Positions 47,275 through 60,190 of a stretch of DNA of 64,000 nt are shown one piece after another. The stretch comes from a candidate division FCPU426 bacterium (GTDB lineage: Bacteria; Oederibacteriota; JAAXVQ01; JAUVAV01), in assembly GCA_040756875.1 (NCBI GenBank), contig JBFLYH010000001.1:145317-209316 (forward strand), written 5' to 3'. The position numbers were made by a program, and so were the translations under genes. The notes under the pieces were generated by a model. The model saw only the letters and a program-made list of their open reading frames with translations, was not told where the DNA came from and did not search any database. Each line of letters opens with the position of its first letter. Position 1 is the first letter of the stretch.

Positions 47275-48621
47275 ATGAACATCCGTCTGCGAGTCCTGGT
47301 GCCGCTGTTGTGCGCCGCAGCCTGGCTGGGCGGCGTTTCTGTCTGCCCGGCCGGATTGATGTCCGAGGCGGAAAAAACCCTGTTCATCAATTTCATGGTG
47401 GACTACGCCACGCCCGAACGGTCTGCTGAGTGGAAGGGCTGGAATTACAGCAACAGCCAGGTCAGTCACAATCCCGATCAGATGGGTCCTGACCAGCGCC
47501 GCGACATCGCCTCCTGCCTCTATCCGCTGGTCGGGGTGTATGACATGAGCGATCCCATGATCGCCGAGTACCATTGCCAGCTGATGAAGATGATCGGCGC
47601 GGACGCCGGTGTTTTCACCCTGAGTTTCAACGAGGATCCCAATGCCGCCAAGCCGCAGATGCGGAACCTGCAGCGGCGGGTGATGGAAAATTATTTCCGG
47701 TATCTCAAAGCATACAGCCTCAAGGGCGTGCTTCTGTTCGAGGACAAAGCGCATTGGCTGTGGAACGACCGGCATAAAACCAGAACCGAGACGGTCTGGG
47801 CCGCCTTCGCGGATTTGGACCAATGGCTGGGCCAGTTCCGCGACGTCCAGGTCCAGGTGGCCGGCCGCCCCCTGGTGCTGCTATTCAGCTACAGCCAGCA
47901 GGTTCCGGGCCGGGGTGAGAGCCGTTTTTCGCCCGATGAAATCGGCTATTGGATGAAATCCTTCGAAGAAAACCAGCGGCCGATTCTGCTGGCTCAGTGG
48001 TTCAGCCCCGAGTACCGCGGCTCCCTGGACGGCTATTACGAGTGGCCCCATGTGGTCGGGCCGCCGCCGGCTGGCAGGGATTGCCGCGTGTTCAACGACT
48101 TCGACCAGGAAGTCAAGCTGTGGGAGAGCCGGCACGAGGAATTGTATTTTAACCTGGCCAACGGGCATTACCAGCTGGTGATCGGCGGCGTGTGGCCCGG
48201 CTTCGAGGATACGGGCTGCTACGGGTGGGGCGGGGGCTGCCGCATCATCCCCCGTTACAACGGCAAGGTCTATGCCTATCATTGGAAGCGGATGATCGAA
48301 TCGAATTATCCCCTGGTGCAAATCGCCACCTGGAACGACTGGGGCGAAGGCACGGCGATTGAGCCCAGCCGCGAATACGGCACCCAGTACCTGGAATTGA
48401 CCCGGGAATGGTCGGCCCGGTGGCGGAAAACCGACGCTCTGACCGGGAACCTGCATGTCCCCGCCTGGATCTATGTCCTGCGCAAAACCTCCAAGCAGCA
48501 GAAGGCGCTGGAGGCCGCGAAAGCGGCCAGCGCCGCGATTCAAAACGGCCGTTTCGACGAAGCGGAGCGGCTGCTGCAGCCGTTCGTCCAGCCCCTGCAA
48601 CTGGAACGGAAGCTCCCCTGA
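47275..48621 (+). CDS. Secreted GH99-like glycoside hydrolase family protein (endo-alpha-mannosidase-like TIM barrel)
   Basis: It has a signal peptide. 'RRDIASCLYPLVGVYDMSDPMIAEYHCQLMKMIGADAGVFTLSF' and 'IATWNDWGEGTAIEPS' resemble GH99 motifs. Confidence 0.45.
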   Translation: MNIRLRVLVPLLCAAAWLGGVSVCPAGLMSEAEKTLFINFMVDYATPERSAEWKGWNYSNSQVSHNPDQMGPDQRRDIASCLYPLVGVYDMSDPMIAEYHCQLMKMIGADAGVFTLSFNEDPNAAKPQMRNLQRRVMENYFRYLKAYSLKGVLLFEDKAHWLWNDRHKTRTETVWAAFADLDQWLGQFRDVQVQVAGRPLVLLFSYSQQVPGRGESRFSPDEIGYWMKSFEENQRPILLAQWFSPEYRGSLDGYYEWPHVVGPPPAGRDCRVFNDFDQEVKLWESRHEELYFNLANGHYQLVIGGVWPGFEDTGCYGWGGGCRIIPRYNGKVYAYHWKRMIESNYPLVQIATWNDWGEGTAIEPSREYGTQYLELTREWSARWRKTDALTGNLHVPAWIYVLRKTSKQQKALEAAKAASAAIQNGRFDEAERLLQPFVQPLQLERKLP

Positions 48622-48720
48622 ACCGCCCGCCGGTTTTTTGCGGGCTCGCCCATTAAAAAACTGGCAAAATTCCGATAAATGGATAAAATGTGGGCAGTTT
48701 CCGGAGGGGGGCTTGATAAT

Positions 48721-51519
48721 ATGAAGCGAATAGCAGCCGTGATCGGCATCTTTCTGGCGCTGGGCGCCGGCGGGTGCCAGCAAGCCATGGTGCACGTCAG
48801 TCCCGGCGAGGTGGCCTTTCAACCGGGCGCTGAACCGCCGGCGGTCCTGGCTTATTATTTTACCGGGTATGAAACCCCGGTCCGGAGCAACCGCTGGCGT
48901 TTTTGGTCCTGGGAACAGAAACCCCGCCGCCACAACCCGGACCGGATGTTTCCGGACGGCCGGCGCGACATTGCCGGCATCCACTATCCCCTAATTGAAC
49001 CGTACGATTCAATCGATGAGGACGTGATCGAATACCACATGCTCCTGGCCAAGGCCGCCGGTTTGGACGGGTTTGTGGTCGATTGGTACGGGTTCAACAA
49101 TGAATTCGGGCAGCCCCGCTACGAAGACCAGGTGTTTCGGAAAATGCTCGCCCTGGCGGAGCGCTTGAAATTCAAAGTCTGCCTCAGCTTCGAAGATAAA
49201 AGCATGTTCCCGCCTTTTCAGCGTCTGGCTGACCGCAAGGCCAGCGTCGCCCTGGCGCAGCAAACCATCGCCCAGGCCTGCAGGCAATACGGCCAGCAGC
49301 CGGGCTATTTCAAGCTGGACGGCCGTCCGGTTCTGACCGGCTATAATTGGAACCTGGCTACCGAGGAAGCGCCCCAAAACGGGGCCTTCACGGTTTCCGA
49401 ATGGCAGCGCATTCTGGCCGGCATGGGTCCCAAGCGGCCGGTTCTGATCTCCAACGTCCACTGGCACTGGAACCGTTCCCTGGCGGACACGCGGTATGCC
49501 GAAGTGGCGGACAGCCTGTATCCCTGGGTGGCCAACAGCTGCAAGCAGCTGGACCGCTTCTACACCGAGGAAGCCCGGCTGGTGGCCGGGGACAAGCTGA
49601 AGTTCTTAAGCGGCGTGGTCTGCCCGGGCGCCGACAATTTCGGCACCTGGGGCGGGGACGAGAGCCGCACTATTGTCCCCAGGAAAAACGGCGAGGTTTA
49701 CAAGAACACCTGGCGCGAGAGCCTCAAGCACAAACCCCGCTGGATCCAAATCGCCACCTGGAACGATTTCCCGGCGGGCAGCACCATCGAACCGTCCAGG
49801 GAGTACGAATATCAATATCTCGAGATCACCTCCGATTTTGCGTCCGCCATCCATGGCCAGCAGCCGGATTACCAGGCCCTGCGTGTGCCAAAAAAGATTT
49901 TCGATGCCAAGCGGGAACTGCGCGAATTGAGCCAGACCAAGGCGGCAAACCGGTCGGTGCTTGACCTACTGCAAAAGGACATCGGCGAAGCCGTGGACTT
50001 GATGGCGGGAAACCAGACGCGCCAGGCGGACGCACTCATCAGCCAGACGCTGCGCGGGCTGGCCGGTGAACGAGCCAAAGTGCAGCCCGAACCGGAGTTG
50101 ATCGTAACGCTTGAACCCGAGAAACTCAGCCTCCATGCGGGGGAGGCGAAATATTTCTGGGTGGAAGTCAAAAATGCGACGCCCAAAGCCGTGCGCGGCC
50201 GCATCAAGCTGGACAGCGACCGTGATTTGCCCGCCGATTGGTTCAATCAAAGCACCATGCCCGTGGATTTGAATCCCCGGCAAAAAACCAAGCTGCCTTT
50301 CCGGATCAAGGTTCCGGAGGAGGCTGGCAATATCAAAGCCTTGCTCGAAGCGCAGTTGTACGCCGGCGGCAAGTTCATCCGGTCGCGGGTCTCAACCGTG
50401 GATGTCGTCACTCCGTATTTCAACGTGGATGTGGGTTCCCGCAACCTATACCAGCTGGGCGAGGAAGCGGAGGTGCGCGTTTTGCTCGCCGGTCTGGAGG
50501 AGGACAGCGGCAAAATCCAGCTGATTGCTCCTGCCGGCTGGCAGGTTCGGCCGGTTGAAGTCGAATATACGCTCGTCCCGGATCAGCCCAGCGAGGCGGT
50601 TTTTTGGGTCAAACCCACTACCAGCCAGGCCGGCTTGCTGACCGCTTCGGTGAAAAGCCGGACCCAAGGACAGGTGCGGGTCCAGGAACCCGTGCAGGCG
50701 TTGCGGGGCGGGGAAACCGTGGCGCTCCAGGGTGACGTGGACAACGACGGCGAAACCGATTTCGTACTGGGTAACCGCCGGGTGGAGGTCCACGTCAGTT
50801 CCACCCATGGCGGCCGCATAACCGGGTTTTTCCTTAAAAGCGACGGCGGTGACAATCAGTTGTTTTACGATCCCAACCTGTCCCGCCAGCGGGCGGCTGC
50901 AGAGACCGACCAGTGGATTGAATATGGAGGCATCAACGATACCTTTCCCTTGAATTGGCCGGGCGAGGTTTGGAACAACCGCTGGCCCACCCGTATCGTG
51001 GAATCCGGCCCGGGCAAAGGGTTGGAACAAACAACGCGTGCGGCCAACGGCCTGGCATTGACCCGCCAGCTGCGCCTGCGGGACGATTCACCCCGCCTGG
51101 AAGCGGTTTACTTGGTGAAGAACACCGGATCAAAGAAAATCAAATACCGGTGGCACAATCACCCGGATCTGTCACCCGGTCCGAACGACGAAGCCCAGCG
51201 TTCCATACGCATCCAGGTTCCCCAATCCGGAGGAGTCGTTAACGTCCCCTTTTCAGGCAACCTGACCAAGGAGCATTATCCGCCGTCGCAAAACTGGTGC
51301 CTCACCTGGGACAGCGAATCGGACGAATACTTTCTGCAACAGTTCGACGCGCGCCGGGTGGAGAAAATCGGGGTTTGGCAGGGCAGGAATTTTTTCACCA
51401 TGGAAATCATTTCCAGGGAGGCGGTTCTGGAGCCGGGCGCGACCGACCGCTTCCGCGTGGATTATATAGCCGGCAAGGGAGATTGGGAGAACCAATTGCC
51501 GCTTTTTTCCACCCGCTGA
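48721..51519 (+). CDS. Large lipoprotein: N-terminal GH99-like domain plus about 600-aa beta-rich C-terminal extension with a Ca-binding-like 'DVDNDGETDF' motif
   Basis: The lipobox is 'ALGAGGC'. 'RRDIAGIHYPLIEPYDSIDEDVIEYHMLLAKAAGLDGFVVDW' and 'IATWNDFPAGSTIEPS' make it a paralog of the upstream gene. The start is at 48721, with a GGAGGGGGG RBS. Confidence 0.45.
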   Translation: MKRIAAVIGIFLALGAGGCQQAMVHVSPGEVAFQPGAEPPAVLAYYFTGYETPVRSNRWRFWSWEQKPRRHNPDRMFPDGRRDIAGIHYPLIEPYDSIDEDVIEYHMLLAKAAGLDGFVVDWYGFNNEFGQPRYEDQVFRKMLALAERLKFKVCLSFEDKSMFPPFQRLADRKASVALAQQTIAQACRQYGQQPGYFKLDGRPVLTGYNWNLATEEAPQNGAFTVSEWQRILAGMGPKRPVLISNVHWHWNRSLADTRYAEVADSLYPWVANSCKQLDRFYTEEARLVAGDKLKFLSGVVCPGADNFGTWGGDESRTIVPRKNGEVYKNTWRESLKHKPRWIQIATWNDFPAGSTIEPSREYEYQYLEITSDFASAIHGQQPDYQALRVPKKIFDAKRELRELSQTKAANRSVLDLLQKDIGEAVDLMAGNQTRQADALISQTLRGLAGERAKVQPEPELIVTLEPEKLSLHAGEAKYFWVEVKNATPKAVRGRIKLDSDRDLPADWFNQSTMPVDLNPRQKTKLPFRIKVPEEAGNIKALLEAQLYAGGKFIRSRVSTVDVVTPYFNVDVGSRNLYQLGEEAEVRVLLAGLEEDSGKIQLIAPAGWQVRPVEVEYTLVPDQPSEAVFWVKPTTSQAGLLTASVKSRTQGQVRVQEPVQALRGGETVALQGDVDNDGETDFVLGNRRVEVHVSSTHGGRITGFFLKSDGGDNQLFYDPNLSRQRAAAETDQWIEYGGINDTFPLNWPGEVWNNRWPTRIVESGPGKGLEQTTRAANGLALTRQLRLRDDSPRLEAVYLVKNTGSKKIKYRWHNHPDLSPGPNDEAQRSIRIQVPQSGGVVNVPFSGNLTKEHYPPSQNWCLTWDSESDEYFLQQFDARRVEKIGVWQGRNFFTMEIISREAVLEPGATDRFRVDYIAGKGDWENQLPLFSTR

Positions 51520-51598: not shown

Positions 51599-52159
51599 GT
51601 GTCCTGGATCGCTTTATTGCTGGTTGCCGTGGGCTTGGGTATGGATGCCTTTGCCGTGGCTGTGGCCACGGGCGTCAAGCTCTGCCGCGTGAACTGGCGC
51701 CAGGCCGGCCGCATGTCCCTGGCTTTCGGTTTTTTCCAATTCGCCATGACAGCCGCGGGGTGGCTGGGCGGCCGCACGCTCAGCGGATTTTTACATGCCG
51801 TGGACCATTGGGTGGCTTTCACCCTGCTGGCCGTGGTGGGCGGACGCATGGTCTGGGGCGGTTGGCACCCCGAACAGGCAGGCTGGCGGGCCGAGGATCC
51901 GACCCGCGGCTGGCTCCTGCTCACTCTGGCCCTGGCTACCAGCGTGGATGCTTTGGCCGTGGGGTTTGGGTTTTCACTGTTGCAGATCCCGATTTGGGGG
52001 GCAGCCGGGCTCATCGGCGTGGTTGCTCTGCTGATGACGCTCGTAGGATTGCACATCGGCTGCCGGGTGGGGCTGACGTTCGGCCAACGCATGGAAATCC
52101 TGGGCGGCCTGCTTCTGATTGGCATCGGAATTAAAATCCTCGTGGATCACCTCACCTGA
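51599..52159 (+). CDS. mntP: Manganese efflux pump MntP
   Basis: 'GMDAFAVAVATG' and a second repeat 'SVDALAVGFGFS' match the MntP/YebN DUF204 repeats. Confidence 0.75.
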   Translation: MSWIALLLVAVGLGMDAFAVAVATGVKLCRVNWRQAGRMSLAFGFFQFAMTAAGWLGGRTLSGFLHAVDHWVAFTLLAVVGGRMVWGGWHPEQAGWRAEDPTRGWLLLTLALATSVDALAVGFGFSLLQIPIWGAAGLIGVVALLMTLVGLHIGCRVGLTFGQRMEILGGLLLIGIGIKILVDHLT

Positions 52160-52251
52160 ACTTTTCCCGCCGGAAGAATTACATAGGCATTTTAATATTC
52201 CGATAGTATGATGAAAGCTCATTGCGCTTAACATCCGAGGAGGACTGGGTT

Positions 52252-53187
52252 ATGACGACGCGGTTGATGCGAGGATGGGTGATGGTGGCGCCCATGGCAC
52301 TCGTGGTTTTATGCGGGCATCCCGGCTGGGCGGCCAAAAAAACGGCCAGATCCGTCAAACCGCCCAAGGTTGAAAAGACCGCGGAGCAGCTGCGCCAGGA
52401 GGTGGCAGCCGCGCCGGACCAGGCCCAGTTGCAATACGAACTGGGCGTGGCCCTGGCCAAAGAGGGCAAACCGCAGGACGCTGTCAATGCGCTGAAGAAA
52501 GCCACGGAACTGAAAAACGATTTTACCGCCGCCCATTATACTTTGGGCGCGGTCTATTACAGCCTGAAACGCCCGGACCAAGCCAAAACCTCGTTTCGAC
52601 GGGCCGTGGAGCTGGATTCCCGGCACGCCAAGGCCCACCTGGGCTTGGGAACCTTGTGGCTGCAGGAAAAGAAATACGCCGATGCTGTCAAGGAATTGGA
52701 AGCCGCCTTGCGCGCAGACTCCCGCCTGCCTGCTGCGCATTACCAGCTGGGACTCGCCCACTTTTACCAGGGACAGTACCGGCCCGCGGCCGCTTCCTTG
52801 CGTCAGGCGATTGCGCTGGGCAAACGGGATGGGGAAACGCATTACACCCTGGGCAATGTTTATCGGAAACTAGGGCAATGGGAACAGGCCGCGGCCGCTT
52901 TTTTGGACGCCACCAAGGCTGAACCGAAAAACGCCAAAACCTGGAATGAATTGGGATACGTCAAATATGAGCAGAAAGAATTCAAGGCCGCGCAAAAGGC
53001 CTGGGAAACGGCAGTGTCGCTGGACCCGCAATCCGCCGAAGCCCACTATGGATTGGGGCTGGTGCACCTTCAGGCCAAGCGCTGGGACCAGGCGCAGGCG
53101 GTGTACGAGCAACTGCGGAGCTTGGACGCCGAATTGGCGGCTGACCTGCTTTCCGAACTGGAGGCCAAACGGCCGAAGGAGAAGTGA
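52252..53187 (+). CDS. Secreted TPR-repeat protein
   Basis: It has a signal peptide, then about seven TPR units ('AHYTLGAVYYSLKRPDQAKTSFRRAVELD', repeated). The start is at 52252, with a GAGGAGG RBS. Confidence 0.6.
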   Translation: MTTRLMRGWVMVAPMALVVLCGHPGWAAKKTARSVKPPKVEKTAEQLRQEVAAAPDQAQLQYELGVALAKEGKPQDAVNALKKATELKNDFTAAHYTLGAVYYSLKRPDQAKTSFRRAVELDSRHAKAHLGLGTLWLQEKKYADAVKELEAALRADSRLPAAHYQLGLAHFYQGQYRPAAASLRQAIALGKRDGETHYTLGNVYRKLGQWEQAAAAFLDATKAEPKNAKTWNELGYVKYEQKEFKAAQKAWETAVSLDPQSAEAHYGLGLVHLQAKRWDQAQAVYEQLRSLDAELAADLLSELEAKRPKEK

Positions 53188-53197
53188 GGCGGTCCGG

Positions 53198-53659
53198 TCA
53201 GGTATAAAGCGGCGAGTTCATGTCATCGAGTTCGAAATCCACCAAAAACTGCTTCAACAGCTTGCGGCTCGAAGGTTCGAGGTCCAGGAATTCCACGCCC
53301 ACGGCGTAGCGTCCCTCGCCGCGGGGCTTGGACCAAGCCACGCGGGCCAGAATGCTGACCAGATTACATTCGTCCTCTTTAAAAACGCTGGCATCCACCA
53401 GTTCCCGCCGCTTGGATTCGGGCGGCAGGAACAGCGTCAAGGTCAGGAGCTGCCCCCCCTGCAGCGGGGATTGGCTGCTCATGGCCAGGCCCTTGGCCCC
53501 CAGGTCGTCAGCGAGGCTGTGGCTCACTTCGAAGCGCGATTTTTCGCCCCGGATGAGGATGCGGTATTTCAGCTTCATCCTCAGGGGGATGCGAGGATAT
53601 CTCCGGGATTCAACAACCACCATCTCGCCCTTTAAATCCGGCTGCTCTTCCATGGCCAT
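53198..53659 (-). CDS. PilZ-domain protein (c-di-GMP binding)
   Basis: 'RRYPRIPL' (RxxxR) and 'DLGAKGLAMSS' (D/NxSxxG) are present. Confidence 0.6.
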   Translation of the reverse strand: MAMEEQPDLKGEMVVVESRRYPRIPLRMKLKYRILIRGEKSRFEVSHSLADDLGAKGLAMSSQSPLQGGQLLTLTLFLPPESKRRELVDASVFKEDECNLVSILARVAWSKPRGEGRYAVGVEFLDLEPSSRKLLKQFLVDFELDDMNSPLYT

Positions 53660-53694
53660 TCCTCCTCGCGGTCTGCCTTGCCTCCCGCCTAATT

Positions 53695-54666
53695 TTATAC
53701 TACCACGCGCAGGGCTTGCGGCACCACTTCAATATCCACGGGCATATGCCCAAGGTATTCGCCGTCCAGCTGCAGATGCTCCCGGCGGTTCAGTACGGTG
53801 ATGCGGCGGCACTGTAGGTATTCGACATCCAGGAATTTGTCCAGCGCGCTGTGCTGCCAGCCCCAGATGTAGCCGAGGAAATGCAGAAAACTGCGGCGCT
53901 TGAAAATGCACACGTCCAGCTTTCCGTCCTGCAGGTCGGCCCGCGGCAGCAGCGCCATGTTGCCGCCGTAATATTTAACGTTGCCGGCGATGACCAAGTA
54001 TCCGCGCCGGGGTTCGGGTTGTCCGTCGATGCGCACCCAGACCTGGCGGAAAGGGTAGAGAAAGAAGGCGGCAATGCCCGCCACCAAGTAAGCGAACGCG
54101 CCGGTCAGGCGTTTGAGCCTCCAGTCGGTATTCTTGATGACAAAGGCGTCGAATCCCACCCCGGCCATGCAGGTGAAGTAGCGCTGATTCACCCGGCCCA
54201 GATCGATGGCGGTCTGCCGTCCCCGCGCCAGCAGGCGGCAGGCGGCGTCCAGGTCCAAGGGGATGTTCATCTGCAGGCTGAAGAGGTTTACGGTTCCGGC
54301 AGGGATGACGCCCAGCGCGGTGGAGGAACCGGCCAGGCCGTTGATGACCGCGTTGATGGTGCCGTCGCCTCCTGCCGCGACCACCAGATCGTAGCGGTTT
54401 TTAACGCATTGCCTGGCAGCGGCCGTGGCTGCGCCGGGAGACAAGGTCAGCACCGGTTCGGCCTGGAGTCCCTGGTTCCGCAGGGCCTCGAGAATTCGAC
54501 GGAGATAAACCTGGGGGGATTGGATTTTGGACTGCGTTAACGCGCCCGTCCAGGCGAGCGCTCCGCCCGAACCGGACTGCGGATTGAAGATCAGCTTGAT
54601 TTTTTTCAGCCGGGGTTTCCGTTGGCCGGTCCTCGCCGGCGCGGCAGGCGGCTTGCTTCGCATCAT
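53695..54666 (-). CDS. Diacylglycerol kinase-family lipid kinase (YegS/BmrU-like)
   Basis: 'VVAAGGDGTINAVINGL' and 'LGVIPAGTVNLF' are present. The start is at 54666, with a GAGGGG RBS. Confidence 0.65.
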   Translation of the reverse strand: MMRSKPPAAPARTGQRKPRLKKIKLIFNPQSGSGGALAWTGALTQSKIQSPQVYLRRILEALRNQGLQAEPVLTLSPGAATAAARQCVKNRYDLVVAAGGDGTINAVINGLAGSSTALGVIPAGTVNLFSLQMNIPLDLDAACRLLARGRQTAIDLGRVNQRYFTCMAGVGFDAFVIKNTDWRLKRLTGAFAYLVAGIAAFFLYPFRQVWVRIDGQPEPRRGYLVIAGNVKYYGGNMALLPRADLQDGKLDVCIFKRRSFLHFLGYIWGWQHSALDKFLDVEYLQCRRITVLNRREHLQLDGEYLGHMPVDIEVVPQALRVVV

Positions 54667-54894
54667 ATCCCCTCGTTTCCCGAATGGGGCGAACAGGCGG
54701 TTTGGCGCCGGAACGATTTCGCGCCCCTCCGCCGATTGCACCGCCGCTGGCCTCGGAGGAATTCATTGTAGCATTTTTGACCCCCGCTCCGACCGCCAAA
54801 AAGAATCCAACGCTTTGCGGATTTAGGAAAAATGTGCTAGGATTAAAATCCTGGAACAGTCCCGGTCCTGCGGGCCTTGAAAAGGAGCAGCGGC

Positions 54895-56619
54895 GTGAAA
54901 CCTGGCAACATCATTCTCGCTCTTTTTCTGGTGATCGGCGTATTCTTGGTGATGATGGGACTGCAGATCGTGTCCTTCAGCACGGCATTTATTTTCATCG
55001 CCGTGCTGACGGTGATCGCCCTGATACTGATCGCCGTTTCCCTCAATAAAGGGCCGGAAGCGAAAGCCGCGGCGGCCGCGGCGGCCGCCGGAACGGCGGT
55101 CAAGACTCAGCCGGCGCTCATCGAGCCACCCAAGCCTGAATTGCCCAAAATATTGCAAAGCAAGACCCCTGAAACCCCGGCCGAAGCCCCGACTCCTCCG
55201 GTGGCTGAACTGGTGGTTCCCAACCAGCCCCTGGAAGTCATCACGCATTTGGCTGAACCCGAGCCTGCGGTAGAAGCGCCGGTTTCGGCTCCGGAATCCC
55301 TTGCCGCCGAGCCGGCGGTTTACGCAGAACCCCAGGCAGCAACGGTTGAAATCCAACCCCCCGTTTCTCCGGATACCGAGGTAAAGCCGGAAATAGAGCA
55401 AACCATCGAACTGGTCGCTCCTGCCCCTGTTCAGCTTGAACCCGCGTCAGAACCGGTTGCCGAACCCGCGCCAGTGCCAGTGCCTGAGCCCGTGCCCGAG
55501 CCTGCTGCTGAATCCGAGTTCGCGGCAGCGCCTGAACCCGAGCCAGCCTCCGAACCGGAACCGGACTGGGCGTCAGCGGTTGAAGCGGTGCCTGAACCGG
55601 CGTTCGAACCCTCGCCCGAACCTGAGCCTGCGGCGGCGCCGGAGCCATTGCCCGAACCTGCCGCCGAACCCGTGATGGCAGCCGAACCGGAATCAGCGCC
55701 ACTGGCCGTCCCTGAGCCTGCCGTGGAAACCCAGCCAGAACCCGTTACGGCGCCTGGGCCTGAGGTCCAACCCGAACCGAAAGTCGAGGTTGAAGCCCAG
55801 GACCGGCAGGAAACCCCGGCACGTCCTGAAAGCCAAGCGGTTGCCGTGCCGGAAGCAAACGCCAGTCCCAGGCCGTCCTGGGCGCCGATGGAAAAAGAGC
55901 TTACAGGATCCGCGGCGCAGCCGGAGGAGCCGGTCTCCGCCCGCTTGGAAGTGCCGGCTGCCCACCCCCCGGGCGTGGAAGAACTGGTCGTGCCCAGCCG
56001 CGATGTGTCCCGGATGGAAGTCCGGACGGTTCCGTCGCCTGTCATTCCAAACCGGCTGAACCGCGGCGAACGCGGCAGCGCGGAGACGCGTTCCATTCCC
56101 GCGGAATTGGGCCAAAGACTGGCCCAGCTGCGCCAGCAATGGTTCGAAGCCTGGGTGGAAGGCATACGCCGCTTCAACCGGCAGCAGCGTCAAACCGGGG
56201 TCCGGATTCCGCTGGAGCACTCCCGCTTGGGCGGGGAGGCGGAAATCGCCCTGCGGGTTTACCAGGTGAATCTGGTTGCGGATTATCTGCGTCGTTATCC
56301 ATACCTGCCCGGCCAGGAAGCGGTTGATTTCCTGGCCAAACTCGAGCAACAGGTTTTCGGCGCCGAGCGGGAGGTCTGCTTGTCATACCGGAAAAAGACT
56401 GAATCCGACGAGGCCGATCCGGTCGGGCGCTTCGCCGCGCACGTGCCCGCCGTCAGCGCGTATTTGGCCGGGAGGAATCCCGGCGACCTGGTTGCCAAAC
56501 TGCTGCTGGACAAGCTGCCGGCGTGGGTGGAAGGCAATCAACTGGAAATCGCCCAGGCCCTGGGCGACAAACGCACGGCCAATAAACTCGGCAACCGGCT
56601 CCGCCAAGGCGTGCGCTGA
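54895..56619 (+). CDS. Membrane-anchored protein: about 46-residue N-terminal hydrophobic anchor (probably two TM helices), about 330-aa Pro/Glu/Ala/Val-rich low-complexity linker, and a conserved C-terminal globular domain of unknown function
   Basis: The likely start is GTG at 54895 (RBS AAAGGAG). The ORF track's 54877 is TTG. PEPxPE-type repeats are visible at both DNA and protein level. The gene lies in an operon with the STAS-kinase fusion. Confidence 0.5.
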
Positions 56620-56652
56620 CCGGGCCGGCAAAACGGAAGGCGAGGGACCGCG

Positions 56653-57927
56653 ATGAGTTCACTGCTCGAATTCAACCAGCAACCCAGCCCGTTCATCGAC
56701 GACGTGCTCGTGCTGTCGGTCAGGGGCTCGATCGATTCGGAAACCGCGCCGCGGTTCGAAAAAGAGTTGTCCGCACTGCTGACCGGCGGCCATTCGCGGG
56801 TGCTGGTGGACATGGCTGAAACTGAATACGTCAGCTCGGCCGGGGTGGGCGTTTTCATCGGCATGATCCAGGAATTCCGTTCGCGTCCCGACGGCGACAT
56901 CAAAGCCTGCCGGGTTTCCAAAAAAATCCTGAAAATATTCGAGTCCATCGGCCTGGACGACATGCTCGATATTTATCCGGATGCGCAGTCCTTGACCATC
57001 TGGACCGCGGCGCCCCAGATCGAAGAGACACTCAGCCGTTTCGCGCTGGCGGTTCCCGCGGCCGAGGTCTATTGCGGCGAGGAATTCGTTCTGCGGGTCG
57101 AGGCCAGGGATTCCAAGGGCGCGCTGGCCATGGACTACCAGGCCGCGCCCGCGTTGCAGGTCTCGGCCGGCATGATTTTTCCCGTAGAACTCCTGGGGTT
57201 TTACCAGGGTTCGTGGCAAGGCAAGGTTAGGGTTACGGCTTCCGGAGAACTCACACTGACCGTGAAAGACGGCCACCACGTCGGCAACCTGACCCTGGCC
57301 GTGAAGGAACGCGAGCGGAAAGCGGTCTTTCCCATTGTCCACCAGTGCCCCACCTGCCGCGCCCAGATTCAGGTCCAAGGACCGGACTTGTATCGCTGCG
57401 AGATGTGCGACGAGACCTTTCGCGTGGATGATTGGGGGCATGTTTTCACCCTGAAGCCGGGCAGCCTGGCGCGCCGCCGCAAATCGCGTTACAAGGGCAT
57501 CGACATCCGGATGAACGCGGATGTGAATTACCTGGGCGTCATCCGCCAAACCGTCAGCAGCATCTGTCAGAAAGAAGGCATGGACGATGTGACCACCAAC
57601 GCCGTGACCCTGGCGGTCGAGGAAATCCTGCTCAACATCATCGAGCACGGCAACGACTATGATCCCTGGCAGATCCTGCGCCTGCGCCTGGAATTCCAAA
57701 AGAAGCAGGCCAAAATCCAGATCAGGGATTACGGAGATCCCTTCGATGTGACCAAACGCAAGGATTTGTCGCTGAAGTCGAAGATCGCCCAGGGGGCCAA
57801 GCGCGGGGTGGGCGGCCTGCTGGTCAATCAGTTGATGGATCAGGTCAAATATGAAAGCCTGCCCACCTACAACCAGCTGACCCTGATCAAGCGATACGGC
57901 GAAGCTGAACCTGGAACCGCGACCTGA
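56653..57927 (+). CDS. Single-chain partner-switching module: N-terminal STAS (anti-sigma-factor antagonist), central beta/zinc-ribbon region, C-terminal RsbW/SpoIIAB-type GHKL Ser kinase
   Basis: The STAS domain is 'VLVDMAETEYVSSAGVGVFIGM'. The zinc ribbon is 'CPTCRAQ...CEMCDETF'. The kinase N-box is 'AVEEILLNIIEHG', G1 is 'DYGDPFD' and G2 is 'GVGGLLV'. Confidence 0.6.
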   Translation: MSSLLEFNQQPSPFIDDVLVLSVRGSIDSETAPRFEKELSALLTGGHSRVLVDMAETEYVSSAGVGVFIGMIQEFRSRPDGDIKACRVSKKILKIFESIGLDDMLDIYPDAQSLTIWTAAPQIEETLSRFALAVPAAEVYCGEEFVLRVEARDSKGALAMDYQAAPALQVSAGMIFPVELLGFYQGSWQGKVRVTASGELTLTVKDGHHVGNLTLAVKERERKAVFPIVHQCPTCRAQIQVQGPDLYRCEMCDETFRVDDWGHVFTLKPGSLARRRKSRYKGIDIRMNADVNYLGVIRQTVSSICQKEGMDDVTTNAVTLAVEEILLNIIEHGNDYDPWQILRLRLEFQKKQAKIQIRDYGDPFDVTKRKDLSLKSKIAQGAKRGVGGLLVNQLMDQVKYESLPTYNQLTLIKRYGEAEPGTAT

Positions 57928-57960
57928 AGCCCCGCCGAACAGACATGGATGAAGGGAAAT

Positions 57961-57995
57961 AAAAAAGCCGGGAGCTGTTGCTCCCGGCTTTTTGC
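57961..57995. terminator. Bidirectional rho-independent terminator (A6-GCCGGGAGC-tgtt-GCTCCCGGC-T5)
   Basis: The hairpin is flanked by an A-run and a T-run. It closes the 54895-57927 operon and the convergent small gene. Confidence 0.65.
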
Positions 57996-58008: not shown

Positions 58009-58230
58009 TTACTGGGATTCCTCGGTTTCGCTTTCTTCGGAAGACTCATCCTCGCCCATCTCTTCGTCTTCGGCTTGATTCTTGTCCTCGCCCATGGTTT
58101 GGCCGCCGGATTGGACGGTTGTCTCTTTCTTGCCTCCGTTAGAGCCCATGGCCTGCGCACTGCCGTGAATCCAGGGGATTAAGGCCGCGACGAACAATCC
58201 GATCAACAACCCCATCCATACTTTACGCAT
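58009..58230 (-). CDS. Small (73 aa) secreted/membrane protein with a highly acidic Glu/Asp/Ser C-terminal tail
   Basis: A strong RBS GAAAGGAG lies upstream. The N-terminal hydrophobic helix is followed by '...DEEMGEDESSEESETEESQ'. Confidence 0.4.
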   Translation of the reverse strand: MRKVWMGLLIGLFVAALIPWIHGSAQAMGSNGGKKETTVQSGGQTMGEDKNQAEDEEMGEDESSEESETEESQ

Positions 58231-58299: not shown

Positions 58300-59538
58300 T
58301 CATCGTTGGTGACGGGAATCGCCTCCGGTGATCAAACGGGAAATTTTTGCCATGAACGTGCCGGTTTCGGTTTTCAACCTTTTAAGCAATATGCGCGCCC
58401 AGGCCACTTCAGTAGCCAGAATGCCCAATCCAGCGGCGATCACTAAAAGCCCTGGGCCGGGGGTGATCAGCATGACCAAACCGGCCAGCAGGACGGTGGT
58501 TCCGATCAACACCACCGCCAGACGGCGCAGTCCCTGGTACGTTACTTGCGCCAGCTGGCCGAGGTCCTGGGCCAGCGGGGAGGCGGGATCCGTGCCAGGC
58601 CGGGGAGCGATGAAGATGGCCGCCAGCAATCCTCCGGCGACCAGACAGCCGATCACCGCCAGGACCGTAAGCGGCCGCAGGGGGCGGAGCGGGTCCAACA
58701 CCAAGACCAGGCCTAAAAAAAGCAGCAAAAAGACCTGGCTGAGGCGGATGAACCGGAGCCGGCTCATGAGCGAAGCCAGGGCGAAGTACAGGGAGCGAAG
58801 CCCCAGGAGGGAAAACAAAGTGGCGGTCATGGCGATCCAAGGGTCGTGGGTGACGGCAAAAATTGCGGGAACCGTATCTGCGGCAAACAGCAGGTTGGAC
58901 GTCATCACCAGCAACAGGGCTGCGAACAACGGGGTTGCAGCCGGCCGGCCTGCGGAGGGCACCCAGAAGCGTCCGCCGGCCTGATCCGCAACGGACGGGA
59001 ATAAGCGGCGGCTCAGCCAAACCGCGGGATTGCGTTCCGGCAGCAGGTGCCCCTGCCGTGACACCGCCAGCTTGACTGCGGTGGCGATAAGCAGCAGACC
59101 GAACAGGTAGTCGATCCAAAGCAAGCGGTGCACGAGAAACGAACCCCCGGCCAAGGCCAGCGATCTGAGCGTGATCATGCCCGCCAAACCCCAAAACAGG
59201 ACGCGGTGCTGGCATTCCAGGCAGATGCGCAAGGAGGCGAATATGCAGGCGATGAGATAGATATTGTCCAGGCTGAGCGACTTTTCGAGCAGAAAACCCG
59301 CGAAAAACTGCCGGGCAGCCTGGCGCGGCGTCAGTGAGGAAACGGCGGCTATGGCCGGATCGGAGTAATAAAAATAAATAAAGAAATTAAACAGCAGGGC
59401 CAAAGCGAACCACACGGCGGATAAAAACCAGGCCCGGCTGATGGACAAGCTTGCAGCCGGCGGTTGCAGGATCCGCGTTTCCAGCAGCAAAAGCAGGATG
59501 GCGACCAAGGGAAGTAAAAACCAAGCCCAGAGGGACAT
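58300..59538 (-). CDS. TerC-family integral membrane protein fused to a C-terminal PGPGW-type transmembrane module
   Basis: The TerC repeats are 'SLSLDNIYLIA' and 'FAADTVPAIFAVTHD'. The C-terminus carries 'LITPGPGLLVIAAGLGILATEVAW'. The start is at 59538, with a GGGGAGG RBS. Confidence 0.5.
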   Translation of the reverse strand: MSLWAWFLLPLVAILLLLLETRILQPPAASLSISRAWFLSAVWFALALLFNFFIYFYYSDPAIAAVSSLTPRQAARQFFAGFLLEKSLSLDNIYLIACIFASLRICLECQHRVLFWGLAGMITLRSLALAGGSFLVHRLLWIDYLFGLLLIATAVKLAVSRQGHLLPERNPAVWLSRRLFPSVADQAGGRFWVPSAGRPAATPLFAALLLVMTSNLLFAADTVPAIFAVTHDPWIAMTATLFSLLGLRSLYFALASLMSRLRFIRLSQVFLLLFLGLVLVLDPLRPLRPLTVLAVIGCLVAGGLLAAIFIAPRPGTDPASPLAQDLGQLAQVTYQGLRRLAVVLIGTTVLLAGLVMLITPGPGLLVIAAGLGILATEVAWARILLKRLKTETGTFMAKISRLITGGDSRHQR

Positions 59539-59584
59539 CACAGGGCCTCCCCAAGTCCCGGAGAAGCAAAAAGGCGGCGGCGGT

Positions 59585-60190
59585 TCACTTGCCCTGGCGG
59601 CTGAAACGGCCGAGCGCATCATCCAGCCGGTTGGTTTCGGGGTGGAGGAAAGGAAACGCCGACGGACTGACGGTCCGGATGTCTTCCACGGTGTATACAG
59701 CTTGGGGATCGTGGCATTTGACGATCTCCAGAATTTCCCGGATGCGTTTGCGCTTGACGATGGAAAACAGCACTTTGACCGGGCGAAAGAGCCCTTGCCC
59801 GTCGATGGTGGTCACGCCGAACCCGCTTTCACGCAAATTGGCCAGCAAATCCGGCGTGGGCTGGGGCGTGATGATGCGGATGATGGACAAGCCCATGGCC
59901 AGACGGTTTTCCAGCCACATGCCCGCGAAGGTGCCGGTGGCGAATCCGCCGGCGAAAGCGAAATACGTGGCCAGATTGTTGAGGTTGCGCATGAGCTGAG
60001 TGATGGCCAAAAGCCAGATCAGGACTTCGACGAATCCGATGAGCGGCGCCCAATACCGCTGGCCGCGGGTGATGAAGATGATGCGGATGGTGCCCAGGGT
60101 GACGTCCACGACGCGGGCGCAAAAGATCAAAAGCGGCAAAAGCACCCACTGGAAAACGCTGCTTTGCGCCCATTCGCTCAAAATCGGCAT
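59585..60190 (-). CDS. UPF0316/DUF2179-family membrane protein
   Basis: Three N-terminal TM helices are followed by a C-terminal 'SGFGVTTIDGQG...VKRKRIREILEIV' DUF2179-like domain. Confidence 0.5.
   Translation of the reverse strand: MPILSEWAQSSVFQWVLLPLLIFCARVVDVTLGTIRIIFITRGQRYWAPLIGFVEVLIWLLAITQLMRNLNNLATYFAFAGGFATGTFAGMWLENRLAMGLSIIRIITPQPTPDLLANLRESGFGVTTIDGQGLFRPVKVLFSIVKRKRIREILEIVKCHDPQAVYTVEDIRTVSPSAFPFLHPETNRLDDALGRFSRQGK

Follow-up and report, generated by a model that had tools for sequence, protein, structure and literature searches.

A single-chain STAS, zinc-ribbon and GHKL-kinase protein encoded beside a membrane-tethered partner in a candidate division FCPU426 bacterium

Partner switching is a textbook logic of bacterial signalling, studied almost wholly in systems where the STAS, kinase, phosphatase and sigma components are separate proteins. 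In a 64-kb stretch of DNA (the window, within which all coordinates are given) from a metagenome-assembled genome (MAG) of FCPU426, a candidate phylum, two same-strand (+) open reading frames (ORFs) fill positions 54895-57995: gene A, upstream, encodes a membrane-tethered protein, and gene B, downstream, joins an RsbV-like STAS domain to an RsbW-like serine kinase on one polypeptide. The domains and their logic are known, but the fused family is undescribed, has a conserved tethered partner, and belongs to lineages that are all uncultured. In our judgement there is an even chance that gene B works as a single-chain partner switch in which the protein's own STAS domain is phosphorylated, a PP2C phosphatase encoded elsewhere resets it, and the target is the gene A product and not a sigma factor.

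The gene B fusion protein and its conserved residues

The two genes and the domains of gene B are laid out as follows; model confidence is given as the predicted local distance difference test (pLDDT).

54895-56619 (+): gene A, 574 aa, with a hairpin of two transmembrane helices, a low-complexity spacer and a conserved C-terminal domain
56653-57927 (+): gene B, a 424-aa single chain with STAS, immunoglobulin (Ig)-like, zinc-ribbon and GHKL-kinase domains
56692-56988 (+): STAS domain of the anti-sigma-antagonist type (Pfam PF01740, residues 14-112, 52.8 bits against a cut-off of 22.6, 3.7e-14)
56836-56838 (+): codon of the candidate phospho-acceptor Ser62, within the motif EYVSSAGVG
57025-57312 (+): Ig-like beta-sandwich (AlphaFold2 strands at residues 129-218, pLDDT about 90; Foldseek matches to SbsC S-layer Ig domains)
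57328-57456 (+): predicted four-cysteine zinc ribbon, FP-x4-C232-x2-C235 ... C249-x2-C252 (four short strands, pLDDT 85-90)
57460-57498 (+): conserved basic disordered linker, residues 270-282, G-S-x-A-(K/R)-R-R-K-(S/T)-(R/K)-Y-K-G
57499-57900 (+): GHKL serine-kinase domain of the RsbW/SpoIIAB type (PF13581, HATPase_c_2, residues 288-413, 83 bits against a cut-off of 27.4, 2.3e-23)

The original prediction had read the chain, in order, as a STAS domain, a beta-rich region, a CxxC...CxxC ribbon and an RsbW-type kinase, and Pfam, NCBIfam, AlphaFold2 and Foldseek all return that order. Both domain hidden Markov models, PF01740 and PF13581, scored well above their cut-offs, so the C-terminal domain is indeed a GHKL kinase. 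The STAS domain also passes NCBIfam TIGR00377 (55.2 bits, cut-off 53.45) and in Foldseek searches of the PDB matches RsbV/SpoIIAA with template modelling scores of 0.83-0.90. The kinase domain lies nearest to the RsbW and SpoIIAB models, far below their equivalog cut-offs (NF003144, 49.5 vs. 145; TIGR01924, 46.2 vs. 155; TIGR01925, 28 vs. 135), and was matched to SpoIIAB, RsbW and UsfX structures at E 1e-8 by Foldseek and to PDB 6m36_A by sequence alignment. The closest solved sequences to gene B are Bacillus subtilis RsbV and RsbW, both from the complex 6m36, and an NCBI entry whose sole annotation is 'anti-sigma factor antagonist' matches the protein at 100% identity. The gene B product is leaderless and without a transmembrane segment (maximum hydropathy 1.34), and no SpoIIE/PP2C Pfam match was found in it. 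As for the parts between STAS and kinase, the region first described as beta-rich does hold a beta-sandwich, more exactly an Ig-like repeat unit also found in giant secreted proteins, and is without a Pfam family; the ribbon, four-stranded at residues ~228-268 of the AlphaFold2 model, gave sub-threshold Pfam zinc-ribbon matches.

The serine of the EYVSSAGVG motif and the kinase boxes, both pointed out in the original prediction, are intact. RsbV is phosphorylated on Ser56, to which Ser58 of SpoIIAA corresponds. In the alignment with RsbV (6m36_B) the gene B segment YVSSAGVG falls on YMDSTGLG and S62 pairs with the RsbV serine, therefore Ser62 occupies the position of the phosphorylated residue; the aspartate that precedes the acceptor in RsbV is replaced by Ser61. 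Among 24 gene B relatives of 48-84% identity (alignment A1), invariant positions include S61, S62, the four cysteines C232, C235, C249 and C252, and the residues of the N (E324, N328, E331-H332-G333), G1 (D359, G361, D362) and G2 (G385, G387) boxes. Since the catalytic and acceptor residues are invariant in relatives down to 48% identity, and are retained in the wider family at 25-30% identity, both activities appear to be under selection. In the basic linker R275, Y280, K281 and G282 are likewise invariant, with pLDDT below 50 at residues 274-278. Its motif AxRRK(S/T)(R/K)YKG holds a basophilic-kinase-like R-R-x-S/T sequence with a conserved Ser/Thr, which could be a candidate second phosphorylation site.

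Compared with RsbV–RsbW and SpoIIAA–SpoIIAB of Bacillus, gene B shares the STAS fold with a serine in a (D/S)-S-x-G-x-G acceptor motif, the HATPase_c_2 kinase with N, G1 and G2 boxes, and the order of rsbV and rsbW, STAS first and kinase second. Unlike those systems it is one polypeptide with a 170-residue insert of Ig-like domain and zinc ribbon, and its operon is devoid of sigma and PP2C genes, the conserved partner gene being that of a membrane-tethered protein. The stressosome module (RsbR/RsbS/RsbT), in which one operon encodes RsbR- and RsbS-type STAS proteins and an RsbT kinase as distinct products, differs too: gene B has a single STAS domain joined to a single kinase domain, and its NCBIfam matches are of the RsbV and RsbW types; a profile search with A1 found no second STAS or kinase gene in the window.

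Gene A and its pairing with the fusion

The arrangement of the two genes is conserved in relatives. The C-terminal domain of gene A is encoded directly upstream of the fusion, on the same strand, in nine of the ten loci whose fusion is of the gene B class (type 1), at 52-67% identity; these are the window, L012, L007, L001, L005, L008, L011, L088 and L089, with A–B gaps of 7-133 nt. All-against-all comparison found the flanks otherwise unrelated across loci, except for a divergent DAGK/YegS-like kinase gene in three, therefore the adjacency of A and B has survived extensive rearrangement. Among the 89 loci collected the gene A C-terminal domain occurs beside type-1 fusions and nowhere else: it never adjoins either the ~440-aa paralogue of the fusion (type 2) or P0033, a distant member. 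As regards the partial synteny that does exist, genes for MntP, a TPR protein, a PilZ protein and the divergent DAGK/YegS-like lipid kinase lie in common upstream of the pair at 51599-54741 of the window and at L012:855-4252, and a DAGK-like gene is found near the pair in L001 too.

The signals and the segments of gene A, as read in the window, are listed below.

54777-54806 (+): possible sigma-70-like promoter, TTGACC-18-AAGAAT, ~90 nt upstream of the operon; weak
54882-54887 (+): Shine-Dalgarno sequence AAGGAG, 7 nt ahead of the GTG start of gene A
54907-55041 (+): N-terminal hydrophobic hairpin, two predicted transmembrane helices (Kyte-Doolittle)
55042-56088 (+): acidic low-complexity spacer, hypervariable, Pro/Ala/Glu-rich here
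56089-56616 (+): conserved C-terminal all-alpha domain, 176 aa here and ~176-188 aa in orthologues (alignment A2)
56642-56646 (+): GAGGG ribosome-binding site of gene B, inside the intergenic gap
57962-57993 (both strands): bidirectional intrinsic terminator, AAAAAGCCGGGAGC-TGTT-GCTCCCGGCTTTTT, common to gene B and a convergent 73-aa gene

The GTG at 54895 was preferred as the start of gene A over the longest-ORF TTG at 54877 because AAGGAG stands 7 nt before it and the orthologues begin at the equivalent residue; the ORFs, the Shine-Dalgarno sequence and the orthologue N-termini thus agree with the two-gene operon as first delimited. From the gene A stop to the gene B start there are 33 nt, and the operon is closed, as had been proposed, by a terminator, a 9-bp GC-rich hairpin with A and T runs on either side. 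The promoter-like match is not significant alone (one site found against 1.1 expected by chance). No riboswitch or leader RNA was found near the operon, the only matches being sub-threshold ones to the terminator hairpin.

The anatomy that had been ascribed to gene A (a two-transmembrane anchor, an acidic linker and a conserved C-terminal domain) is recovered by hydropathy and by comparison of orthologues, the linker measuring 338 aa vs. the ~330 claimed. No Pfam, NCBIfam or PADLOC family matched the protein. Its sole hydrophobic stretch is residues 1-55, where a conserved hairpin of ~50 residues reaches 70% identity with L012 over residues 7-62. Lys/Arg-rich flanks on both sides of the hairpin predict, by the positive-inside rule, that both termini, the spacer and the C-terminal domain are cytoplasmic, the compartment of the leaderless gene B product.

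Six full-length gene A orthologues share hairpin, spacer and C-terminal domain. The spacer is 198-372 aa long in orthologues and its sequence is wholly unconserved: Pro/Glu/Ala-rich in the window and L089, made of (E/A/K/R) repeats of the charged single alpha-helix kind in L012, L007, L001 and L088. In the window it contains 22% P, 17% A, 17% E and 11% V, with a net charge of -45; the earlier description as a 'PEPA-repeat' linker thus holds for the Pro/Glu/Ala bias and not for any tandem repeat at the DNA level, where Tandem Repeats Finder reported short arrays only. Proline-rich and charged-helix spacers are both extended and stiff. With the sequence unconserved and both chemistries stiff, it is apparently the length or stiffness of the spacer, and not its sequence, that is under selection. 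Three independent assemblies break inside the spacer (L005:1-780, L008:2-742 and L011:2-925); contigs ending in such a repeat-rich segment are a typical assembly break in repeats, which implies that gene A orthologues are systematically truncated in public MAGs.

The C-terminal domain ends in an invariant A-x-A-L-G-D-K...K-L (A2). AlphaFold2 modelled it with 6-7 helices at pLDDT 72 (43-72 over five models), a moderate confidence because only two sequences could be used. Foldseek found no fold match for it in the PDB (best E 1.3, generic helical bundles), and no match was found to PDB sequences at E up to 10 or, for eight members, to Pfam at E up to 10. Protein homologue searches with the domain, both as a single sequence and as a profile, returned one protein only; the orthologues were gathered by synteny, the word-indexed protein search having missed them. 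The motif IAxALGDKRTxxKL had suggested by eye a hidden sigma region 2 or 4 or another helix-turn-helix, and neither Pfam, PDB sequences nor fold comparison supported this. A role of the operon in anti-phage defence found no PADLOC matches.

The proposed switch and its alternatives

Since gene A is the only co-inherited gene, its C-terminal domain is the leading candidate for a partner or target of the fusion, and the external partner is most likely other than a sigma factor. In the mechanism that we propose, the unphosphorylated STAS domain would dock on the kinase, of the same chain or of the partner chain in a kinase dimer, so that the partner-binding face is occupied (closed state). The kinase would then use ATP to phosphorylate Ser62, within one chain or between the two of the dimer, and the phosphorylated STAS domain would be let go (open state), its exposed surface binding or releasing an external partner until the switch is reset by a PP2C phosphatase whose gene lies elsewhere. 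The partner would probably be the helical C-terminal domain of gene A, tethered by the stiff spacer to the inner side of the cytoplasmic membrane, and the switch would control reversible recruitment to, or release from, this tether, giving a membrane-proximal and not a transcriptional output. Gene adjacency suggests that the fusion protein could be anchored to the membrane in this way. The four-cysteine ribbon may serve as a structural hinge or as a metal or redox input, and the Ig-like domain as a lineage-specific spacer or interaction module. In a conserved natural fusion STAS and kinase are present in a fixed 1:1 ratio and at a higher local concentration; the kinetics of the switch should change, because staying open then requires either phosphorylation or a partner that competes. 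The tethered membrane protein with which the fusion is strictly paired makes a non-sigma output testable, in a phylum without cultured members.

Self-phosphorylation on a single chain has a precedent. Mycobacterium tuberculosis Rv1364c resembles gene B in uniting a kinase with its STAS substrate in a single polypeptide, and Foldseek matches the RsbU/RsbW domains of 3ke6. According to Greenstein 2009, as cited in PMC7693655, Rv1364c autophosphorylates its own fused STAS domain, so a fused GHKL kinase can phosphorylate the STAS domain to which it is joined. Its order is sensor, PP2C, GHKL kinase and STAS (PMC7693655), in agreement with the contrast drawn in the original prediction; unlike it (PAS sensor and PP2C, with kinase before STAS), gene B is free of a phosphatase, reverses the order and carries the insert. 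For outputs other than sigma factors the comparable systems are SypA/SypE of Vibrio fischeri, HsbA/HsbR of Pseudomonas and BtrV/BtrW of Bordetella, which share with gene B the STAS and RsbW-like kinase modules. Their STAS proteins stand alone and their kinases are joined to REC and PP2C domains; to our knowledge, zinc ribbons, Ig-like inserts and tethered membrane partners are absent from all three. They are sigma-independent switches, with an output other than a sigma factor encoded alongside (PMC10120452, PMC8256260).

Several observations weigh against the proposed switch. The shortfall of the kinase domain from the RsbW and SpoIIAB equivalog cut-offs is one. In the exceptional locus (L003/L015) gene A is absent and a ~440-aa fusion paralogue lies upstream instead, and all loci come from one candidate-phylum neighbourhood, so that some of the synteny could be inherited and not selected. 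The PP2C probe detected no homologue in the whole window. The AlphaFold2 model of gene B built on A1 (mean pLDDT 80, predicted template modelling score 0.43) defines the domains well, with low confidence in the ATP-lid region 362-389, and leaves their mutual arrangement uncertain, therefore no docked STAS–kinase pose is supported. Autophosphorylation and the binding of A to B, finally, are argued from sequence and synteny.

In the closest rival reading gene B would be an ordinary anti-sigma factor that carries its own antagonist, and its kinase would sequester a group-3 (SigB/SigF-like) sigma factor encoded elsewhere while the tethered STAS domain competes for it, gene A being unrelated or accessory. 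Such a reading agrees with the best sequence and fold matches, which are to RsbW, SpoIIAB and UsfX, sigma-bound structures included, and with the NCBI label of the gene B protein. In classical partner-switching systems, however, the sigma gene usually lies in the same operon. Here, as originally noted, the operon has neither a sigma nor a PP2C gene: the Pfam scan found no Sigma70-domain or PP2C gene at 47-61 kb of the window, and no sigma gene stands among the annotated neighbours in L001, L003, L005, L007, L012, L014 and L085-L089, so that the fusion is not accompanied by one in any annotated locus and its conserved neighbour is gene A. The distance from the RsbW and SpoIIAB equivalogs, already counted against the proposed switch, tells against this reading as well, and we regard it as unlikely.

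The ribbon and certain neighbours invite a different account, in which the ribbon would sense zinc or thiol oxidation and gate the kinase, the family would control metal homeostasis, and gene A would be a scaffold near transporters. Throughout the STAS–zinc-ribbon–kinase family the four cysteines and the FP ahead of them do not vary. The type-2 paralogue (~440 aa with a basic C-terminal tail; L014:6001-9146, L085:1704-4621 and L003:5698-7876) has DUF1007 and NicO genes directly downstream in two MAGs and a ZIP zinc transporter gene upstream in one, and in a third MAG the end of a FolE2 (GCHY-1) gene runs over its start. As for the A–B pair, ZnuABC lies immediately upstream in L001, and MntP lies upstream in the window (51599-52156) and in L012; with a TerC-family protein on the opposite side, the window has two putative manganese or metal exporters no more than 5 kb from the pair. 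The metal-gene neighbours and the invariant ribbon together suggest a link to metals, one that is clear for the type-2 paralogue only: no metal genes lie near type-1 fusions in L007, L088 and L089. CxxC...CxxC ribbons, moreover, are usually structural, the neighbours are plain co-occurrences, and the DUF1007 literature is uninformative on a zinc link. A metal- or redox-responsive regulator thus seems to us doubtful. The TerC-family protein just mentioned, encoded just downstream of the pair at 58300-59622 (-), is itself a fusion, with a C-terminal PGPGW transmembrane domain.

Both ideas can be combined into a more specific version of the sigma-independent switch, in which the fusion would dock reversibly to a tether tens of nm long acting as a 'ruler', and the ribbon, through its zinc or redox occupancy, would be an input tied to metal homeostasis. 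It draws on the stiff spacer, polyproline-like or charged single-helix, and on the paralogue operons with DUF1007–NicO, ZIP and FolE2. We assign it a slim chance; if true, it would bring a new output logic and a new type of sensor to partner switching.

The wider fused family and the Ig-like repeat

A scan of one genome per species found full-length relatives of gene B only in FCPU426, 'Firestonebacteria' and unclassified MAGs. STAS–kinase fusions had at first appeared common elsewhere, with two-domain tblastn matches of ~700 nt in Bacteroidota, Chlorobi, Planctomycetota and others; nearly all proved to be separate adjacent rsbV and rsbW ORFs, therefore the single-chain form is rare. In these split loci a PP2C gene usually lies just upstream, which reveals the component that the fused family has lost.

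When 1.84 billion cluster representatives were searched exhaustively with a profile, and the matches mapped per domain and scanned with Pfam, further full-length members of 411-429 aa emerged, as did a class of 316-398 aa that matches the profile at 1-116 and ~220-417 and skips 117-218, having STAS, zinc ribbon and kinase without the beta-sandwich. These short forms come from metagenomes (P0063, P0067, P0068, P0073, P0081, P0107, P0109, P0126, P0127 and P0153) and share with gene B the core order, the FP, the four cysteines, the acceptor serine and the kinase boxes; unlike it, they have neither the Ig-like domain nor the RRKSRYKG linker. In an alignment of 14 long and short proteins at 24-49% identity (A4), where the short forms are 24-29% identical to the window protein, no change is seen at FP226-227, the four cysteines, E324, N328, D359, G361, G385 or G387, and Ser62 is conserved to 90% or more. 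Residues kept at such distances indicate that STAS–zinc-ribbon–kinase is a coherent fused family. The predicted four-cysteine ribbon is the signature of this wider STAS–zinc-ribbon–HATPase_c_2 family (~320 aa), and the predicted Ig-like domain and the linker were added in the FCPU426 clade alone, the linker occurring in FCPU426 and Firestonebacteria. The family is unnamed in Pfam and NCBIfam, and no description of a STAS–HATPase_c_2 single chain beyond Rv1364c was found in the searched literature. The initial statement that no described system with this exact organisation was known therefore stands as far as that literature goes, and it is narrowed by the existence of this broader family and of other fusions: kinase-then-STAS (P0123), kinases with two or three STAS domains, and one with a Hanks-type kinase. 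The last (P0172, 644 aa; L087:6001-7935) joins a Hanks-type Ser/Thr kinase to the STAS–zinc-ribbon–GHKL-kinase core, two kinase types on one chain. As an unnamed family with an invariant zinc ribbon, the STAS–zinc-ribbon–kinase proteins define a tractable new module.

Claimed at first to be self-contained, the switch is unlikely to be so, because a kinase-only switch cannot reset. The distant member P0033 (415 aa) is indeed encoded at L086:6001-9153 convergently with an sCache–HAMP–SpoIIE (PP2C) gene and a free STAS gene, and this predicted neighbourhood ties the fused family to phosphatase-driven partner switching. Uptake genes for a TonB receptor, FecCD and CobA lie upstream in L086.

The same neighbourhood is open to another interpretation, in which the kinase acts on some other substrate (the C-terminal domain of gene A, or free STAS proteins), or the fused STAS domain is a decoy or ligand sensor, the fusion being a node in a network of several STAS proteins and kinases. 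The free STAS and PP2C genes adjoining P0033, the tandem paralogous fusions in L003 and the related architectures with 2-3 STAS domains per kinase would fit such a network, and in mycobacteria RsbW paralogues split the anti-sigma, kinase and antagonist roles (PMC7693655). Yet Ser62 is invariant, lies in a canonical acceptor context and is tethered to an intact kinase, so that self-phosphorylation is the simplest expectation, with Rv1364c as a precedent; we consider the network improbable and retain the single-chain switch as the preferred reading.

The Ig-like domain has a history of its own. The beta-sandwich (profile ~122-212) is a ~95-aa repeat unit, of which 4 to 26 copies stand in giant secreted proteins (500-6,700 aa; P0028, P0029, P0059, P0077 and about 100 more) from KSB1, Chloroflexota and other groups. 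They have signal or lipoprotein leaders, are 28-37% identical to the Ig domain of gene B and are without the cysteine ribbon; the shared pattern reads 'LDHF..I.SPQTAG..F.ITITAKD..GN.V..Y.G...L.....G.ISP......F..G.W.G.V.L'. The match of P0029 to positions 125-269 suggested that the repeat might reach into the zinc ribbon, a possibility rejected on inspection: the segment is cysteine-free and is the next Ig-like unit. No Pfam family matches the repeat above threshold, with weak Big_1, invasin and filamin-like hints only. The insert of gene B is thus a repeat of giant secreted proteins re-used inside a cytoplasmic signalling protein.

As for the remaining neighbours in the window, the 73-aa ORF at 58009-58230 (-), the convergent gene that uses the gene B terminator, begins with a signal-peptide-like stretch and continues into a strongly acidic tail rich in Glu, Asp and Ser; no Pfam family matches it. 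Farther upstream, at 47275-51516 (+), two adjoining large proteins of 448 and 946 aa carry glycoside-hydrolase domains of the GH99/GH71/WbsX-like kind.

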